Source: Candidatus Eiseniibacteriota bacterium (GTDB lineage Bacteria; Eisenbacteria; RBG-16-71-46; DASYSL01). From it: a stretch of 33,409 nt of DNA. The notes below the pieces were generated by a model, which had not been told where the DNA came from, ran no database searches, and was given only the letters and a program-made list of their open reading frames with translations. Every line of letters starts with the position of its first letter. Position 1 is the first letter of the stretch. The translations under genes were made by a program, and so were the position numbers. Shown here one piece after another: positions 6,187 to 33,409 of this stretch. Location: assembly GCA_031431875.1 (NCBI GenBank), contig JANPEF010000095.1, positions 1 to 33,409 of the forward strand, in the 5' to 3' direction.

Positions 6187-8618
6187 CTAGAAGAAGAAGT
6201 TACCGAACAGGAAGTGACCCTTCCAACCCGGCGCGATGCGGTCGAAGCCGTACGCATAGTCGAAGCCGACGTTGCCGAGGATGGGGATCTCGACCCGCAG
6301 GCCGACGCCGGCACTCTTGTACCAGTCCCCGATGCGCACGTCGGCCACGCGGTTCCAGGTGTTCCCGCCCTCGGCGAAGATCAGGGCGCGCACCGGGTTC
6401 ACGATCGGAAACTGCTGCTCGAGGGTGAGGATCGTGAACGCGCGACCGCCGGGATAGGGAGTCGGAACAAGGGCGAAGTTCAGGAGGGTCACCTCGGTGC
6501 CCGGGTTGAAGCGCGGGTAGTTGATGTTCTCGAGCGGCACGATCGAGTAGTCCTCGTAGCCGCGCAGCCCGTCGAATGTCACGCCGCCCAGCCGGAAGCG
6601 CTCGTACAACGGCACGGTCCCGCTGCGGATGACCGAGCCCAGCATGCCGCCGCGCACGCGCACCATGTTCGCCCATCCCTTGAGGAATGACTGCGAGTAC
6701 CAGCGCGAGTCGAAGCGGACCTTGCTGAAGTCGTAGTCGCCACCCAGGAAGCTGCCGACGAACTCGTAGGACAGCGACCCCTTCTGCCCGCGGTTCGGGT
6801 AGAAGGGATGGTTCGTGCTGTTGCGCGTGGCCGACAACTCGATCCCCGAAGTCAACTGCTCCCCCTCGGTCTGCAGCGCGCGCAACGACGGAGTCGCGGT
6901 GGCCGGATTGTCGATCGTGATCGTCGTCGCCTCGAGCCGGTAGCGGATGAGCCCGCGCGTGTAGCGCAGGTGTGGGATGGGACGCCCCGACTGCAGTGAG
7001 AAGCCTCGCCGCCTCTCGAAGTACGCGGTGCTCGCGCCCGAGTTGACATCGCGCTCGCTGTAGTAGGCGGTGCCGCCCACCTGGGTCGGCGTGTTGCGGA
7101 ACCAGGGATCGGTGAACGACAGGTCGACCGCACGCCGGCTGCTGCCGCGCTCGAGCTGGATGTTCACCGCCTGGCCGTTGCCGAACAGGTTGTTGTGGCC
7201 GAGGTTGACGAAGCCCGACAGCCCACCGTCCGACGAGTAGCCGGCGCCCGCCGACGCCGTGCCCGTCTGCTTCTCCTTGATCTTGAGGACGACGTCGACG
7301 TCCGTCGATTCTGCGGGCTGGAAGTCGACGCCGACGTCCTCGAAGAAGCCCAGGCGGAACACGCTCTGCTGCGTGTTGACCAGCTGCGAGCGGCGAAACA
7401 GGTCGCCCTCGTGCAGTTCGAGCTCACGGCGGATCACGTTTTCCTTCGTGTAGGTGTTGCCGGTGATGCGCACCTGGCGCACCTTCGACGGCGGCCCTTC
7501 GGCGATCTGGAACGTCACGTCGACGACATTCGAGTCGCGGACGAACTCGGTGGCCTCGACCTGCAGGTAGAGGAAGCCCTCCTCGGCGTACGCCGCGTAG
7601 GCGCCCTCCACCGCCTGGCGAATCTTCGTGCCGTTGTAGTACTCACCGGACTGCGGCTGCGGCAACGATGCAAGCGCCGGCGACTTGATGATCTCGTTGC
7701 CCGCCCAGTGCACTTCACCGGTGCGGTAGCGCGGGCCCTCGACGATCTTGTGCGTGAGCACCACGCCCCCGCCCTTGGGATCGTCGACGAACGGGGCCCG
7801 CTCGACGGTCACGTCGCGAAAGCCGTTCTCGCGGTAGAACGTGCGGATGCGCGTCTCGTCCTCGATGATGTTCTCTTCCTTCACCGTGCCGCTGCGGAAC
7901 GGGAAGCCCTTCTTCTTCGACTTGAGCCGTTTGGCGAGCGCGTCCTCGCCAAAGGCGCCGATGCCTTCGAACGCAACCGCGGTCACCTGCGCCTTCTTGC
8001 CGTCGACGATGGCGAAGCGTACCCACACGCCGGCGCCGGTGCTGTCGGCGGTTGCTGTGACCGCGGTCGCGCGGTAACCCTCCTTGCGGTACTCGCTGAG
8101 GATCGAATCGCGGGCCGCGACCAGCAGTCGTGGGCGCCACGAGTCACCGGGGCGGAACCCGAGGTGAGGAAGCAGGTCTTCCTCCGAGCGCTTCTGGTTG
8201 CCCTCGAACGAGATGCGCGCAACCCTGGGCCGCTCGGCGACGGCGAGGACGAGATGGACGCCCGCCTCATCGGTCGAGCCGCGGACCTCGAGGTCGTCGA
8301 ACAGCGACGTCTCCCACAGGCGCAGCAGGCCCGCCCGCACCTCGCGTGCGTCGTAGGGGCGGCCGACGCGGACCTCGAACGCGCGGGCGATCCGCACCGA
8401 GTCGATGCGGGCGCGGCCGGCGAAGCGGATCGAGGCGACGAGCGGCGCAGGCGTGCGGGGCGCCGCCGCCATGGACGAGTCCGCGGGTTCCATCCGCGGC
8501 GCCGGCAAGTTCCCCTGGGCCAGGGCCGAGCCGGTCCCAAGGACGAGCGCCCCGACCCCCGTCACGAGGGTCAGGGCGACGAGGTACGACAGGAGTTCGA
8601 CGCGTCGGGCGAATCCCG

Positions 8619-8622
<4 letters not shown>
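6187..8622 (-). CDS. bamA: Outer membrane protein assembly factor BamA
   Basis: Signal peptide, five POTRA-like repeats (e.g. ITGNTYTKENVIRREL), NLFGNGQ, SFTDPWF, LRGY motif, C-terminal Phe. Confidence 0.95.
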
Positions 8623-11078
<2,456 letters not shown>

Positions 11079-29200: not shown

Positions 29201-30139
29201 CTAGGGAACCGTCCCGCGCTTGAGTTTCTTCCACAGTCCCTGGCGCGACAGGCCGAGCAAGCGGGCCGCCGCACCCGGGGCGCCGTGCGTCACCGCGAGC
29301 GCCTCCTCGATCCGTCGCCGCTCGAGGGCCGCGCACTCGGCCGCGAGCGTGCGCACCAGGGCATTGCCGGACGCATCCATTCCCGGCGCACACACGCGCG
29401 GCGGCAGCGCGTCGACACCGATCGTTCCGTCAGCGGCGGCAAACAGCGCGGCTCGGGCGACGGCCGACTCGAGCTCACGCACGTTGCCGGGCCACGCATG
29501 GTGCTGCAGCGTGCGCATGGCGACGGCGTCGAAGCGGGCGTCGGGAGCGACGCGCGCCAAGGTCGCGCGCGCGAGCCGGCAAACATCGGATCCGCGCGCA
29601 CGCAACGGCGGGAGAGTCACCTCGATCGCGGCCAGACGGTACCACAAGTCGTCGCGGAAGCGACCCTCGACGGCGTCACGCGCGAGGTCTTTGTGCGTCG
29701 CGGCGAGCACGCGCACGTCGGCCACGCGCTCGCAGGCCTCGCCCAGCCGGCGATAGCGGCCCTCAGCGAGCAGGCGCAGCAGCCGCGCCTGGAATGCCGG
29801 CGATGCGTCGCCGATCTCGTCAAGGAACAGCGTGCCGCCGGCCGCCTCGGCGACGAGTCCGCCCCGGGCGGCGAGCGCCCCGGTGAACGCGCCGCGGGCG
29901 TGGCCGAACAATTCCGCCTCGAGCAGCCCATCGGGGAACGCACCGCAGTTGAGCGCGACGAACGGGCCGCTGCGTCCGGAACGCCCATGCACCGCGTGCG
30001 CCGCGCGCTCCTTGCCGGTGCCGGTCTCCCCCAGCACGAGGATGGGGAGTCGGGTCGGCGCCGCCCGTGCCAGCAGGCGGCAGGCGGCGAGGAACGCGGG
30101 CGAAACGCCCACGCCAAAGTCCGCATACGAATCGTGCAT
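29201..30139 (-). CDS. Sigma54-dependent enhancer-binding protein (AAA+ plus Fis-type HTH) with no N-terminal sensor domain
   Basis: GETGTGKE, ELFGHARGAFTGA, LFLDEIGD, FRDDLWYRL, WPGNVREL, HTH AARLLGLSRQGLWKKLK. purM ends 32 nt upstream, leaving no room for a regulatory domain. Confidence 0.88.
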   Translation of the reverse strand: MHDSYADFGVGVSPAFLAACRLLARAAPTRLPILVLGETGTGKERAAHAVHGRSGRSGPFVALNCGAFPDGLLEAELFGHARGAFTGALAARGGLVAEAAGGTLFLDEIGDASPAFQARLLRLLAEGRYRRLGEACERVADVRVLAATHKDLARDAVEGRFRDDLWYRLAAIEVTLPPLRARGSDVCRLARATLARVAPDARFDAVAMRTLQHHAWPGNVRELESAVARAALFAAADGTIGVDALPPRVCAPGMDASGNALVRTLAAECAALERRRIEEALAVTHGAPGAAARLLGLSRQGLWKKLKRGTVP

Positions 30140-30171
30140 GCACCGCACCGCGGGGGCGATGTCCGGAAAGC

Positions 30172-31191
30172 CTAGACCAGAACGACCTCGCGGGGCCCGG
30201 CCTCGATCGACCCGAGGCGCCAGGGGCGCTCGCCGCGCGTCTCGAGTTCGGCCCGCACTGCGGTTGCCTCGTCCGGCGCGACGATCAACACCATCCCGAC
30301 CCCGAGGTTCATCACCCGCTCCATCTCGTCGCCGGGCACCTCCCCGAGTTCCTGCAGCGCGCGGAACACCGGCGGCCACGTCCAGCTGCCGCGCTCGACC
30401 CGGGCCCGCACCCCCGCGGGCAGCGCGCGCACCAGGTTCCCCGCCAACCCCCCGCCGGTGACATGGGCGAGGCCGTGCAGTGCGCGGCGATCGAGCAGGG
30501 GCCCGAGCACCGAGAGGTACGAGCGGTGGGGTGCGAGCAGCAGGTCGGCGAGCGTGCCATCGGCGCCCGGAAGTGAATCGTCCCAGGTCAGGCCGGCGCG
30601 GGCGACGATGCGCCGGGCCAGCGAGTAGCCATTGGTGTGCAAGCCGAGCGACGGCAGCGCCCACAACTCGTCGCCGGGCCGGATCGCCGTGCCGTCGAGC
30701 ACGCGATCGCGCGCCACGAAACCGACGATCGTGCCGGCGAGGTCGTAGTCACCCGGCGAATACAGGTCGGGCATCTCGGCGGTCTCGCCGCCGAGCAGCG
30801 CGACGCCGTCGGCGCGGCAGGCCTCGGCGATGCCGCGCACGCTTTCCTCGAGCACGATCGGCTCGAGCGCGCCGCAAGCAAAGTAGTCGAGAAAGAACAG
30901 CGGCCGCGCACCGAGCACGAGGATGTCGTTGACGCAGTGGCGCACGAGGTCCCCCGCCGCGCCAGCCCAGCGCCGCGTATCGCGCGCAATCAGGATCTTC
31001 GTGCCCACGCCGTCGGTGCTGGCTGCGATCAGCGGCGCGTCCGGCCCCGCGCCCGGAAGCTCGCACAGGCCGGCGAAGTGACCAACGTCGCCTTTCACGT
31101 GCGGCGTGAAGGTCGAGCGGATGACGGCCTTGAGCCCCGACAAAGTGGCGTCGGCCTTGGCGATGTCGACGCCGGCGTCGCGGTAACGCAT
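30172..31191 (-). CDS. purM: Phosphoribosylformylglycinamidine cyclo-ligase (AIR synthetase)
   Basis: YRDAGVD, TDGVGTK, VNDIL..GARPLFFLDY, GGETAEMP, GLHTNGYSL, AHVTGGG, NLGVGM. Confidence 0.97.
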   Translation of the reverse strand: MRYRDAGVDIAKADATLSGLKAVIRSTFTPHVKGDVGHFAGLCELPGAGPDAPLIAASTDGVGTKILIARDTRRWAGAAGDLVRHCVNDILVLGARPLFFLDYFACGALEPIVLEESVRGIAEACRADGVALLGGETAEMPDLYSPGDYDLAGTIVGFVARDRVLDGTAIRPGDELWALPSLGLHTNGYSLARRIVARAGLTWDDSLPGADGTLADLLLAPHRSYLSVLGPLLDRRALHGLAHVTGGGLAGNLVRALPAGVRARVERGSWTWPPVFRALQELGEVPGDEMERVMNLGVGMVLIVAPDEATAVRAELETRGERPWRLGSIEAGPREVVLV

Positions 31192-32540
31192 CAGGCGCCC
31201 CGGCGCACGGGCGGCAGGTCGAGCGCGTCGTCGTTCGACAGGCGCGGCGCGAGGGCCGGAAACGTGCCCGCGGCGACGAGCCGCTGGAGGGCTTTCACGA
31301 CCGCCGCGTCGAACTGGGTCCCGGCGTGCTTGCCGAGCTCACCGACGGCGCGCGCCGGATCCATCGCCCGGCGATACGGTCGATCCGAAGTCATCGCATC
31401 GTAGGCGTCGGCGACCATGACGATGCGCGAGCCGATCGGGATGTCGTCACCCCGCAGTCCCGCGGGGTAGCCGAGGCCGTCGGGGCGTTCGTGATGATTG
31501 CGCACGATCGCGGAGGCGCCCCGCAGGGCGCGCACCTTGGCCACGATCTCCGCTCCCTCCGCCGGGTGGGCGCGCATGGTCGCCTGCTCCTCGAGCGACA
31601 GACGCCCTGGCTTGGTGAGGATGTACTGGTACTGTCGGCCGACCTTTCCCAGATCGTGCAGCAGGGCGCCGTACTCGAGGTCGAGGACGGCCCGCTCCGA
31701 CATACCGAGCGCACGGGCGATGATCTTCGAGTACTCGGCGACCCGCACCGAATGCTGCCGCGTGTAGGGATCGACTTCCTCGAGCACCTCGGACAGCGCG
31801 CGGACGAACTCGAGCAGGTCCTGCTTCATCTCGAAGTAGCGGCGGAAGGACAGCGCCGCGATCAGCAGCGGCAGGCAGAACATCACGAGCGCAGCGGGGC
31901 CGCCGCGGAAGAACGCGAACGCGGCCACGACGCCGAGCGCGATCATTCCCAGATGCTGCGCCGCGGTCACCGCGTAGTTCACCTGGAATACGCGCGTCAG
32001 GGATCCCGCGCCGGTCAGCGCCAGCACGGTCGAGAGCCCGATGCCGTTGACGAAGAAATAGGTCAACCCGGCGAGGCCGATCGCAAACGCGTCGCCTGGC
32101 AGGTCGAGCCGCCCGGATGAGCCGCCCAGGCCGTGCAGCACGGCGTCGGCCGCGCCGATCATGAGGACGTACAGCGCAGCGTTGAACACCGTGCGCTGCA
32201 GCGGCTTCTTGCGCACCATGAGCTGGGCGACGAGCGTCGAAGCCACGTTGAGCGCCGCCGTCCACGGCCCGCCGAAGATGAGGAGCGCCGCGAAATCGAG
32301 GCTGGCGCCGGGCGTGGCGAAGCCGCCGCCGGGCATGCGCACCGGGGCCAGGTCGGCGAGGATCATGAGGCAGAGCGTGACGGCGAGGCCCGTCCACGGG
32401 AGCGGGTCGAGCCCGGGCGCATGCCCGATCAGCCAGGCGAGCGCGCCGGCCACGACGAGCCCATAGAACGGGAGGAACAGGGGATGGCGCGCGGACGGTC
32501 CGGGGCTCGACGGGGCCGTCCTTGCTGCACGCACTTCCAT
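31191..32540 (-). CDS. Membrane-sensor HD-GYP cyclic-dinucleotide phosphodiesterase (multi-TM, MASE9-like N-terminal domain)
   Basis: About 230 aa with many hydrophobic helices, then DPYTRQHS, LLHDLGK, HHERPDGLGYP, VADAYDAMTSDRPYR. GAGGT RBS 10 nt before ATG at 32540. The MASE9 label is from recall, not a search. Confidence 0.92.
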   Translation of the reverse strand: MEVRAARTAPSSPGPSARHPLFLPFYGLVVAGALAWLIGHAPGLDPLPWTGLAVTLCLMILADLAPVRMPGGGFATPGASLDFAALLIFGGPWTAALNVASTLVAQLMVRKKPLQRTVFNAALYVLMIGAADAVLHGLGGSSGRLDLPGDAFAIGLAGLTYFFVNGIGLSTVLALTGAGSLTRVFQVNYAVTAAQHLGMIALGVVAAFAFFRGGPAALVMFCLPLLIAALSFRRYFEMKQDLLEFVRALSEVLEEVDPYTRQHSVRVAEYSKIIARALGMSERAVLDLEYGALLHDLGKVGRQYQYILTKPGRLSLEEQATMRAHPAEGAEIVAKVRALRGASAIVRNHHERPDGLGYPAGLRGDDIPIGSRIVMVADAYDAMTSDRPYRRAMDPARAVGELGKHAGTQFDAAVVKALQRLVAAGTFPALAPRLSNDDALDLPPVRRGA

Positions 32541-32558
32541 CCCTGGGCACACCTCACA

Positions 32559-32581
32559 TGAAAGAAGAGACCGACACCGAC
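32559..32581 (-). promoter_or_regulatory. 3' arm of a long-range inverted repeat followed by a U-rich tract (terminator/attenuator-like)
   Basis: Minus strand GUCGGUGUCGGUCUC-UUCUUU; the arm is complementary to 32916-32930. Confidence 0.5.
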
Positions 32582-32635
32582 CTGGGGCTCATCTACCCTG
32601 GCAGCGATCCGGACTCAGCGAGGGTCGTCGTTCCA

Positions 32636-32653
32636 CCGCGGGCGAACCCGCGG
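32636..32653 (-). other. RNA hairpin with a UUCG tetraloop just after the peptide stop codon
   Basis: Minus strand CCGCGGG-UUCG-CCCGCGG, a perfect 7-bp GC stem with no adjacent U tract. Confidence 0.65.
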
Positions 32654-32657
32654 GGAC

Positions 32658-32810
32658 CTACCAACCAGCCTTGCCCTTATCGGACGTCGCGTCGTCCCAG
32701 CCGCCCTTGCCATCATCACCAGCGGCCTGGTCCCAACCCGCCTTGCCGTCGTCGGAAATCGTGAAGATATCGACAACGGAGTCAGCCAGCAGCATCAAGA
32801 TCGAAAGCAT
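32658..32810 (-). CDS. Small multi-core Trp-repeat peptide, 50 aa: MLSILMLLADSVVDIFTIS-DDGKAGW-DQAAG-DDGKGGW-DDATS-DKGKAGW
   Basis: Hand-translated; it is shorter than any ORF in the track. Strong RBS 7 nt before ATG. Three repeats at a 12-aa period with synonymous codon variation; TAG directly after the last Trp. Confidence 0.85.
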   Translation of the reverse strand: MLSILMLLADSVVDIFTISDDGKAGWDQAAGDDGKGGWDDATSDKGKAGW

Positions 32811-32817
32811 GTGAGAA

Positions 32818-32826
32818 CACCTCCCC
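32818..32826 (-). promoter_or_regulatory. Strong Shine-Dalgarno sequence of the peptide gene
   Basis: GGGGAGGTG on the minus strand, 7 nt upstream of ATG at 32810. Confidence 0.85.
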
Positions 32827-32865
32827 TAGACTACGTTGAGAACGGAGGAGCCGGACGGCCCCTCG

Positions 32866-32910
32866 CTTCGTTGGGTTGGCGCTCCGCTTCGGATCTTCGC
32901 TTCGCTTCGC
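32866..32910 (-). repeat. CGAAG pentamer repeats in the peptide 5' leader
   Basis: Five CGAAG copies (three in tandem at 32895-32909, plus 32887-32891 and 32866-32870) and one CGGAG variant (32882-32886). Confidence 0.6.
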
Positions 32911-32911
32911 C

Positions 32912-33409
32912 TTACGCCGATGTCGGTCTCAGTTCGTACTCCACAGGCTCGGCCACCCGAAGGCCGCCGAGCACCCGGTTGACCGCGGCCAGCGTCGCGT
33001 AGACCACCGACTGGGTCAGATCCTGTTCCACGGTGCAGGCCCCCACCAGCGTCTTTTCCGAGCGCTGGGCGAGGAGCTTCACCGCCACCACCACCGTGTC
33101 CTGTCGGCCCATCCGGACGACCTCGACGTCGTGCGCCGAGAGCGTCACATCGGGACCGAGGAACGGCGCCAGCGCCGACAGCGTCGCCGACGCGAGCAAC
33201 CGGTGTGCGTTGTCCCGGGCGGACGCGCCGGTCGCATTGCCGACCCGGGTCGTGCCCTGCCAGGACAACTCGACTTCGGCCTGCGTCCGCAGGCCGCTGA
33301 CGAACAGGTTCGCATTGACGAACCGGATCCTTGTCGTTTCGGCAGGCCCGGGAACCGGGACTGCAGAAACCGTTTTTGACTCCGCCACCACCGAGGGCGC
33401 CGGGGGAAG
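32912..33409 (-). CDS. Hypothetical protein, 5'-truncated by the window; C-terminal alpha/beta domain
   Basis: Frame stays open to the window edge (LPPAPS-VVAESK...). A Pro-rich linker precedes RIRFVNANL..EVELSW..ASATLSAL..LVGAC..SVVYATLAAVNR. Confidence 0.75.
   Translation of the reverse strand, partial: LPPAPSVVAESKTVSAVPVPGPAETTRIRFVNANLFVSGLRTQAEVELSWQGTTRVGNATGASARDNAHRLLASATLSALAPFLGPDVTLSAHDVEVVRMGRQDTVVVAVKLLAQRSEKTLVGACTVEQDLTQSVVYATLAAVNRVLGGLRVAEPVEYELRPTSA

Follow-up and report, generated by a model that had tools for sequence, protein, structure and literature searches.

Short peptides with a Gly-Lys/Arg-x-Gly-Trp core as candidate ligands of MASE9-type membrane sensors in Candidatus Eiseniibacteriota

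Introduction

What is the function of a 50-residue peptide that carries a Trp-ended motif three times and is encoded directly ahead of a membrane-anchored phosphodiesterase? This question is raised by contig JANPEF010000095.1 of an uncultured Candidatus Eiseniibacteriota bacterium (assembly GCA_031431875.1). The window analysed here is this whole contig of 33,409 nucleotides (nt), contig C95 of genome G000 (3.75 Mb, 70% GC). By protein identity (94%), the closest named records belong to Candidatus Eisenbacteria. A preliminary description of the window proposed that three co-oriented genes form a quorum-sensing-like circuit, namely those for an upstream protein (here protein X), a small peptide with three Trp-ending cores, and a multi-transmembrane sensor fused to an HD-GYP domain. 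The arrangement is confirmed: all three genes lie on the minus strand, and the upstream one is the C-terminal part of a protein cut by the contig end.

The membrane part of the sensor is of the MASE9 type. MASE9 domains are widespread sensors for which no ligand is known, and they are also matched in the control genomes of Thermus thermophilus and Thermotoga maritima. The ligand is described as unknown and proposed to bind within the membrane in the accessible part of a preprint on the domain (10.1101/2021.11.05.467447). We propose that the C-terminal peptide core, Gly-Lys/Arg-x-Gly-Trp (G-K/R-x-G-W), is probably a trans-acting ligand of MASE9-type domains that tunes the attached output. The phylum reduces the candidate ligand to a five-residue motif, and natural deletions and moves show that none of DUF5317, X and regulation in cis is required. 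If the proposal is true, peptide signalling would be linked directly to cyclic di-GMP (c-di-GMP), and the idea of S-component receptors would be widened from metabolites to self-made peptides. As far as our literature search reached, a core released as a phylum-wide signal would be the first MASE9 ligand class, and also the first case of a self-made peptide signal coupled straight to c-di-GMP turnover.

Genomes and loci

The phylum sample comprised 201 genomes of uncultured bacteria, with arbitrary family codes (f1 to f18); the counts take in one unpublished genome (G015). A total of 87 receptor loci was examined, composed of 84 of 328 matches (picked among the best ones so as to cover the families), one metagenome contig and two loci found via X. 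Locus L039 was excluded for want of upstream DNA. Peptide genes were called in 79 of these loci by script and in two more by reading the loci. Pattern scans for peptides were noisy, so the listed matches were read individually; 239 matches from families other than f13 fall outside this listing, and the patterns miss diverged cores. The receptor tree was a quick build from 50 of about 115 sequences, with support from the Shimodaira-Hasegawa-like approximate likelihood-ratio test only and a midpoint root.

The peptide gene and its conserved core

The peptide gene (32658..32810, minus strand) encodes a 21-residue acidic, hydrophobic N-terminal part followed by three cores with seven-residue acidic spacers: GKAGW (32733..32747), GKGGW (32697..32711) and again GKAGW, which abuts the stop codon (32661..32675). 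As described before, the peptide has 50 amino acids (aa) and three Trp-ending cores. A strong ribosome-binding site precedes the gene (32818..32826). The gene is real and a chance open reading frame (ORF) is excluded, because its ending is unique in the genome and recurs at related receptors. It is the sole [KR]xGW ending among 1465 Shine-Dalgarno-led ORF starts of 8-60 aa in G000. The preliminary description had set as a test the presence of a small Trp-ended ORF beside homologous receptors, and a Shine-Dalgarno-led ORF with a G-K/R-x-G-W-type core is found upstream of the receptor in 81 of the 87 loci. The remaining six are the locus of G033 and five f7 loci. Within the core the third codon positions are free to vary while the residues stay constant, and the stop codon is TAA in 46, TAG in 28 and TGA in 5 of 79 loci. 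Neither Pfam nor NCBIfam has a name for the peptides or for X.

The proposed GK(A/G)GW unit indeed behaves as a module, the conserved unit being G-K/R-x-G-W; the acidic DDG that precedes it is particular to the host's family. Peptides of relatives are 8-49 aa long, mostly 16-17 (mode 16; the two shortest 8 and 12), and usually have a single core. Their N-terminal parts range from acidic amphipathic to hydrophobic (65 of 79 net negative, 7 net basic), with the core constant throughout. In f7, the helix is joined to the core by a Gly- or Pro-rich linker whose length varies. Strongly diverged cores are found in G018, G081 and G107, where the HD-GYP receptor is the sole MASE9-type match, but not in G044, which is in the same situation.

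A multi-core precursor is a derived state, as most relatives have a single core. Three cores are seen in the host's genus and three metagenome contigs, and a sister genus has two (public record L003; the identical peptide occurs in G015). The spacers are acidic, 4-7 residues long and nearly always start with Asp. A second expansion is present in f9 locus L059, with three GGHAWW units and two-residue spacers next to a single-core sister (L060). The supported f1 clade and L059 are separated on the 50-receptor tree, and tandem cores arose twice.

Related ORFs with a Lys-containing start, a hydrophobic stretch, GGA and often Trp lie upstream of the receptor in 22 of 35 actinomycetotal loci, one of them a duplicate. 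In ten of these 22 the tail has no Trp, so that Trp is no universal feature. Three records of a plasmid collection (Bacillota, Actinomycetota) also carry related ORFs; in two of these records X precedes the ORF and a DUF5317 gene follows. The Natranaerobius record (L072, NZ_CP144220.1) has its receptor gene in two pieces, and likewise its DUF5317 gene, and its peptide ORF is unannotated. The peptide adjoins MASE9 genes in three phyla.

A membrane sensor with an S-component fold and an HD-GYP output

The receptor gene (31191..32540, minus strand; ATG at 32540, alternative start GTG at 32552) encodes 449 aa. Its HD-GYP domain (31299..31799) matches Pfam HD_5 (E-value 4e-34) and, as previously read, has all motifs intact: EEVDPYT at residue 254, HD at 295, HP at 325, HHERPDGLGYP at 349 and DAYDAMTSDRPYR at 378. 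The set required of HD-GYP proteins (HD, HHExxDGxGYP, D-A-M..R-x-Y-R and ExxD) is thus complete. In the structure model (predicted local distance difference test score 90), the catalytic part superimposes on the solved HD-GYP structures 9rbz, 4mcw and 4r8z with Z-scores of 24.5-24.9. The output is a predicted phosphodiesterase for c-di-GMP (or cyclic GMP-AMP).

The membrane domain (residues ~18-232; 31845..32489) consists in the model of an extra N-terminal helix and a six-helix core with the fold of the ligand-pocket component in energy-coupling factor (ECF) transporters, the S-component. The best structure match is 4m5c (Z 14.9, root-mean-square deviation 3.4, 189 aligned residues), followed by 3p5n (Z 13.6), 5d0y (13.4) and 4dve (13.1). 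All 14 listed structure rows over this part are ECF-type membrane transporters, some of which we take to be NikM or FolT, and a second listing for the receptor includes RibU, FolT and ThiT. Residues N120, F162, N165 and S170 of the membrane domain are conserved in 91-96% of 78 sequences. The shared fold offers a possible pocket and says nothing of which ligand fills it. Prediction of a complex between the receptor (residues 15-430) and the peptide of 50 aa gave scores of 0.00 and 0.01 (mark 0.32) with an uncertain peptide fold, and counts neither way.

G000 encodes three MASE9-type proteins and a single peptide gene. Besides the HD-GYP receptor, these are a protein that joins a MASE9-type domain, HD-GYP and a PP2C phosphatase (L234, contig C44, ~6940-9230, minus strand) and a MASE9-type histidine kinase (L235, contig C159, 15769-17205, minus strand). 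We consider it likely that the core is a ligand common to the HD-GYP, kinase and phosphatase receptors of this genome. The first reading, a second-messenger output rather than a histidine kinase, is too narrow, because G000 itself has the kinase and the HD-GYP-PP2C protein and four other genomes have only kinases and stand-alone proteins (see below). Two genes that by their sequence encode PilT-like ATPases immediately precede the L234 gene, and no small peptide gene was seen upstream of it.

Receptors also vary among relatives. In f7 (L065-L069), HHW replaces HHE and the Glu of ExxD is lost while the polar membrane residues are kept; given these altered motifs, the f7 receptors may be catalytically impaired. 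Their genes sit directly behind pfkB. Stand-alone MASE9-type proteins of about 240-250 aa, from which an output domain is absent (L157, L158, L160, L241, L242, L243), are possible decoys, sinks or transporters. On viral contigs, 42 loci were matched, with HD-domain matches only.

The peptide follows the MASE9-type domain

The membrane-domain profile is positive in 184 of the 201 genomes and in none of the 14 f13 genomes, and among the matches listed for f13 no pattern match reads as a peptide. X is encoded in 151 genomes, including all 14 of f13, and in f7 in 1 of 41 (a weak match), where the peptide is present in 34 of 41, mostly as tandem pairs. The peptide was also found in 11 of 12 f10 genomes, 4 of 6 of f8 and the single one of f6. 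DUF5317 is absent from G000 and is matched in 1 of the 201 genomes; the control genomes are positive. It follows from these counts that the peptide tracks the MASE9-type domain, and neither X, DUF5317 nor the HD-GYP output. The proposed sensing by the membrane domain is in keeping with both this distribution and the ligand-pocket fold; the upstream protein is not a required part of the system, since f7 has the peptide without X. The lone DUF5317 match (L105, G152 contig C156) lies within a 685-aa open frame and is therefore probably a fusion.

Four genomes separate the peptide from HD-GYP. G041, G053, G090 and G144 keep the peptide, and the only MASE9-type domains found in them are those of histidine kinases and stand-alone proteins, with kinases like L235 as the only output-bearing ones. 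Conversely, in the fetched f13 and f10 loci peptide and receptor are both gone and X adjoins purM or other housekeeping genes; X persists after this loss and has a role of its own. X without peptide or receptor was seen at L161-L173, L175 and L177-L179 (mostly f13 and f10), and the X tails shown for these loci have no C-terminal LRPT-type stretch, which elsewhere encodes an RNA helix arm.

Loss of the peptide along with X in f7 was considered and is ruled out, as the gene has been relocated. Nine loci were fetched around orphan peptide matches (f7, f8, f10 and G041). In the five f7 loci, two peptide copies lie with a dCache membrane gene on one side and a Lon gene on the other; in three f8/f10 loci, the peptide gene lies immediately behind a GAF-sigma-54 activator; in G041, X and the peptide remain and the receptor gene is deleted. 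No MASE9-type gene is present within the fetched 5-10 kb around the eight relocated f7, f8 and f10 loci. All nine upstream regions of moved genes have a sigma-54-type motif, TGGCA-N-GC, 85-99 nt upstream of the start (loose background 0.15 per 270 nt), which agrees with the sigma-54 consensus. The same motif is found upstream of five of five f7 receptors, and none stands at a fixed position upstream of or within X. As the peptide gene can lie far from the receptor, is often duplicated and has a promoter motif of its own, the peptide can act in trans. Additional peptide genes off the main locus were seen in G006 (contig C5), G158 (C248), G129 (C25) and G021 (C41 and C52), with at most three per genome.

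RNA elements around the cistron

The peptide cistron is enclosed by an inverted repeat of 12-15 bp, of which the 5' arm lies in the final X codons or just past them. In the window, the 5' arm (32916..32930, minus strand) falls within the last codons of X, 120 nt ahead of the peptide start, and the 3' arm (32567..32581, minus strand) is followed by a pyrimidine tract (32560-32566). Among 56 of 82 loci, which were picked for both arms matching the motif and hence favour a covariation signal, 91.6% of the cells pair and 10 of 14 pairs show double changes; none of 500 shuffles scores as high in covariation, and for slid controls the pairing is 32-45%. In an unselected test the helix beats all eight shuffles in 58 of 82 loci. 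Outside the phylum, 8 of 22 loci have near-identical arms, beside an X-like gene, a small ORF and a MASE9-type gene, which links the two peptide types to a common origin. The moved f7 copies have no such helix. The helix may regulate expression of the receptor separately from the role of the peptide.

Twin AGCG(A/G)AGCG repeats in the peptide leader (32880..32906, minus strand) recur in both copies in 66 of 82 loci with variable spacing, and the pair occurs once in G000; they may serve as sites where proteins bind the RNA or the DNA. A local GC-rich hairpin past the peptide stop (32636..32653, minus strand) is not conserved as a stable structure (median z -0.3 over 79 loci), and no conserved hairpin of terminator type was found just past the stop (z < -2 in 10 of 79 loci). 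Rfam returned no match at gathering score, and no riboswitch, in 19 loci including window positions 30300-33409.

RNA contigs from four studies span the cistron. They end at 32586 in two studies and, for some contigs in three studies, at 32916-32922; these ends coincide with the inner edges of the helix arms, and several carry sequence that is presumably sequencing adapter. The contigs give a weak hint of a processed RNA piece bounded by the arms. Among those listed, no long piece covers the receptor gene, and cover and depth cannot rank the genes.

How the peptide could act

In the proposed mechanism, the N-terminal helix would carry the peptide to the membrane, where the core, tethered or cut off, would enter the S-component-type pocket. 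Occupancy of the pocket would alter the activity of the cytoplasmic output domain, here a predicted c-di-GMP phosphodiesterase. The dose of cores would be raised by tandem cores in the host's genus, by duplicated genes in f7 and others, and probably also by a helix-closed, separately stable piece of mRNA. We infer core binding, the direction of the effect, cleavage and export. Within this mechanism, a released signal that acts from cell to cell is a tentative option for us, and a ligand that is tethered or stays within the same cell is a somewhat less likely one. With similar reserve we put forward a phylum-wide form of quorum sensing, in which a released Trp-ended pentapeptide would be read by several S-component-fold receptors with c-di-GMP, histidine kinase and PP2C outputs, and would in some families drive its own induction through sigma-54 and a GAF-type activator. 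A loop from peptide to kinase to sigma-54 is what we infer for these families.

Several observations weigh against a peptide ligand of MASE9. The receptor itself scores 21.5 and 23.3 bits with Pfam MASE9 (PF20972), below the cut-off of 24.3, which relatives pulled out by the same profile exceed (L237 34.9 bits, L157 27.6 bits), and its best fold match is barely above a Z of about 13, a value reachable by chance in helical bundles. The joint absence of peptide and MASE9 in f13 concerns a single clade and therefore counts as one event. A MASE9-type domain was found without a peptide in G033, three f14 genomes, G082, G118, G140, G154 and seven f7 genomes. At the G033 locus (L061, contig C1), X and the receptor are present, the peptide ORF, repeats and arms are gone, and two patterns find no peptide elsewhere. 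In G137, the peptide lies upstream of an HD-GYP gene whose membrane domain is reduced to about two helices (L180, contig C29); this genome has two further MASE9-type matches. The peptides of Actinomycetota and Bacillota resemble a membrane helix and are often Trp-less.

Export is a further point against, as none of AgrB, DUF5317 and a C39 transporter was found in G000 and the phylum is without a Sec-type leader. AgrB was found neither at the locus nor in G000, though no control genome passed the cut-off either. No C39 peptidase ABC transporter is encoded in G000, where the sole C39 match reads as a secreted-type protein; any C39 domain is present in 43 of 101 genomes. The Sec pattern of Phr-type peptides, a basic N-region with a long hydrophobic core, is not that of the phylum, where most leaders are acidic, and is present in members from Actinomycetota and Bacillota.

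Alternative explanations

The alternative that survives best makes the peptide a small subunit within the membrane, bound to MASE9 through its helix, the tail being an anchor or contact motif and the pocket sensing nothing, much as MgrB and SafA act on PhoQ. The hydrophobic-helix N-terminal parts in f7, f8, f10, Actinomycetota and Bacillota fit such a subunit, searches of G000 found no maturase or exporter, and co-distribution with MASE9 is equally compatible with it. However, most peptides of the order have 16-17 aa with two to four acidic residues in an 11-residue N-terminal part, which makes them too short, and too charged, for a transmembrane helix, and tandem cores and Gly/Pro linkers would have no obvious purpose in a one-to-one helix partner. 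We regard this subunit as unlikely.

A ligand role would also be mistaken if the peptide were an independent abundant amphipathic product (surfactant-like, type I toxin-like or a precursor of a modified peptide) linked to MASE9 by shared regulation or ancestry. Its amphipathic N-terminal parts and the RNA contigs of four studies are compatible with this, as are two analogies: the 5'-3' pairing of type I toxin mRNAs and the multi-core precursors of RiPPs (peptides made on ribosomes and modified after translation). Yet no modifying enzyme is encoded among the genes that adjoin the peptide, constraint is on the five-residue tail and not on the helix, and adjacency to MASE9 extends across three phyla, which makes such a product highly improbable.

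No more credible is a cis-acting leader, ribosome-stalling or Trp-sensing, that together with helix and pyrimidine tract would set read-through into the receptor gene. The ORF does lie directly before the receptor, with a terminal Trp codon and a conserved helix followed by a pyrimidine-rich tract, and its tail resembles RAGP-type arrest motifs. But the gene persists away from receptors, duplicated and with its own promoter motif, G041 retains it despite deletion of the receptor, and the distance from stop to arm varies from about 10 to 80 nt, besides the free choice of stop codon and the Trp-less actinomycetotal tails. Action in the cytoplasm is very improbable as well, either on X, whose LeuA/CimA-type domain would bind the Trp at the peptide's end, or on the HD-GYP domain: X precedes the peptide in most loci including those of Bacillota, LeuA and CimA bind amino acids with the fold that X has at its C-terminus, and G041 has X and peptide with no adjacent receptor, but f7 has the peptide without X, f13 has X without the peptide, and G041, G053, G090 and G144 have it with only kinases and stand-alone MASE9-type proteins.

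Comparison with known systems

The system that we favour, a peptide core read by MASE9-type domains, resembles peptide-receptor signalling yet departs from the agr, comQXP, PCAT (peptidase-containing ABC transporter) and Phr types, and its parts share nothing with characterized peptide systems. As in agr and comQXP, the gene for a small precursor lies next to that for a multi-pass membrane receptor, and the ComX signal contains Trp. In agr, a ring Cys (or Ser) is followed by an acidic tail, whereas the present peptide has no Cys that could close a thiolactone and, in most members, nothing lies between its core and the stop. ComQXP has an adjacent ComQ prenyltransferase and a Trp three to four positions short of the C-terminus; here X, the receptor and purM adjoin and Trp is terminal. 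Both also differ in receptor fold, and the outputs here include c-di-GMP hydrolysis and PP2C. Double-glycine export through PCATs would have a C39 transporter accompany the peptide, and leader-peptide attenuators an obligate cis position; the former is missing here, and the latter is contradicted by the relocated copies in f7, f8 and f10. MgrB and SafA are tiny membrane-associated proteins that act in trans on a membrane sensor; unlike them, the conserved part here is a repeatable terminal pentapeptide, and many members cannot span the membrane. RopB-type receptors, which bind short communication peptides, are cytoplasmic transcription factors, and the candidate receptor here is a membrane domain.

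Leaderless communication peptides of RopB-type receptors are, in the accessible part of their description, likewise very short and unprocessed (PMC10518010); the shortest peptide here has 8 aa. MASE9-HD-GYP proteins named in the accessible text of the preprint are Thermotoga maritima TM1467 and Streptomyces venezuelae HdgA, which, like the present receptor, fuse a membrane sensor to HD-GYP and have an unknown ligand; its main text, as far as accessible, does not contain the word 'peptide' and is silent on a small partner gene, on an S-component fold and on an RNA helix (10.1101/2021.11.05.467447). Membrane-bound HdgA shows no developmental phenotype when mutated, for which the authors, in the part of the article at hand, blame a missing activating signal (PMC6205966). 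The 5TMR-LYT kinases BtsS, YpdA and KinB have an S-component fold and sense small metabolites such as pyruvate, and share with the present receptor a six-helix S-component core, an extra N-terminal helix and a cytoplasmic signalling domain; they differ in that their ligands are metabolites and not a self-encoded peptide, and no MASE domain or HD-GYP protein is named in the accessible portion of that article (PMC11109136). The CD1980.2 family of Clostridioides difficile comprises multi-copy small membrane-associated proteins tied to c-di-GMP; by the partial description to which our comparison is limited, it lies downstream of c-di-GMP riboswitches and controls sporulation (PMC13724677), whereas no riboswitch was found here. 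The literature searched, with most subscription journals and supplements outside it, holds no description of a peptide/MASE9 module, nor of GKAGW or GRAGW.

Protein X and other neighbouring genes

The part of X present in the window (32912..33409, minus strand) has the LeuA/CimA regulatory-domain fold by profile (LeuA, E-value 5e-6) and structure (3f6g, Z 9.0, root-mean-square deviation 3.0, 109 aligned residues), and is a neighbour, not a required part. X is truncated by the contig end, and its N-terminal part lies at the start of contig C101. In the model of a full-length relative, a small alpha/beta domain is joined by a flexible linker to the LeuA/CimA regulatory-domain fold; the N-terminal domain is generic, with Z 7-8 to numerous small alpha/beta folds. 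In a protein atlas, X falls into unnamed clusters only.

Elsewhere in G000, the secreted-type protein with the C39-like domain (contig C24, 38142-40232) adjoins a small secreted-looking ORF and is patchy in the phylum. Downstream of the receptor follows purM (30172..31191, minus strand, Pfam), which encodes aminoimidazole ribonucleotide synthase and is a conserved neighbour. After purM comes a sigma-54 activator with AAA+ and Fis helix-turn-helix domains (29201..30175, minus strand, Pfam). This gene overlaps the end of purM and encodes almost no N-terminal sensor domain, and similar genes are present in some relatives.

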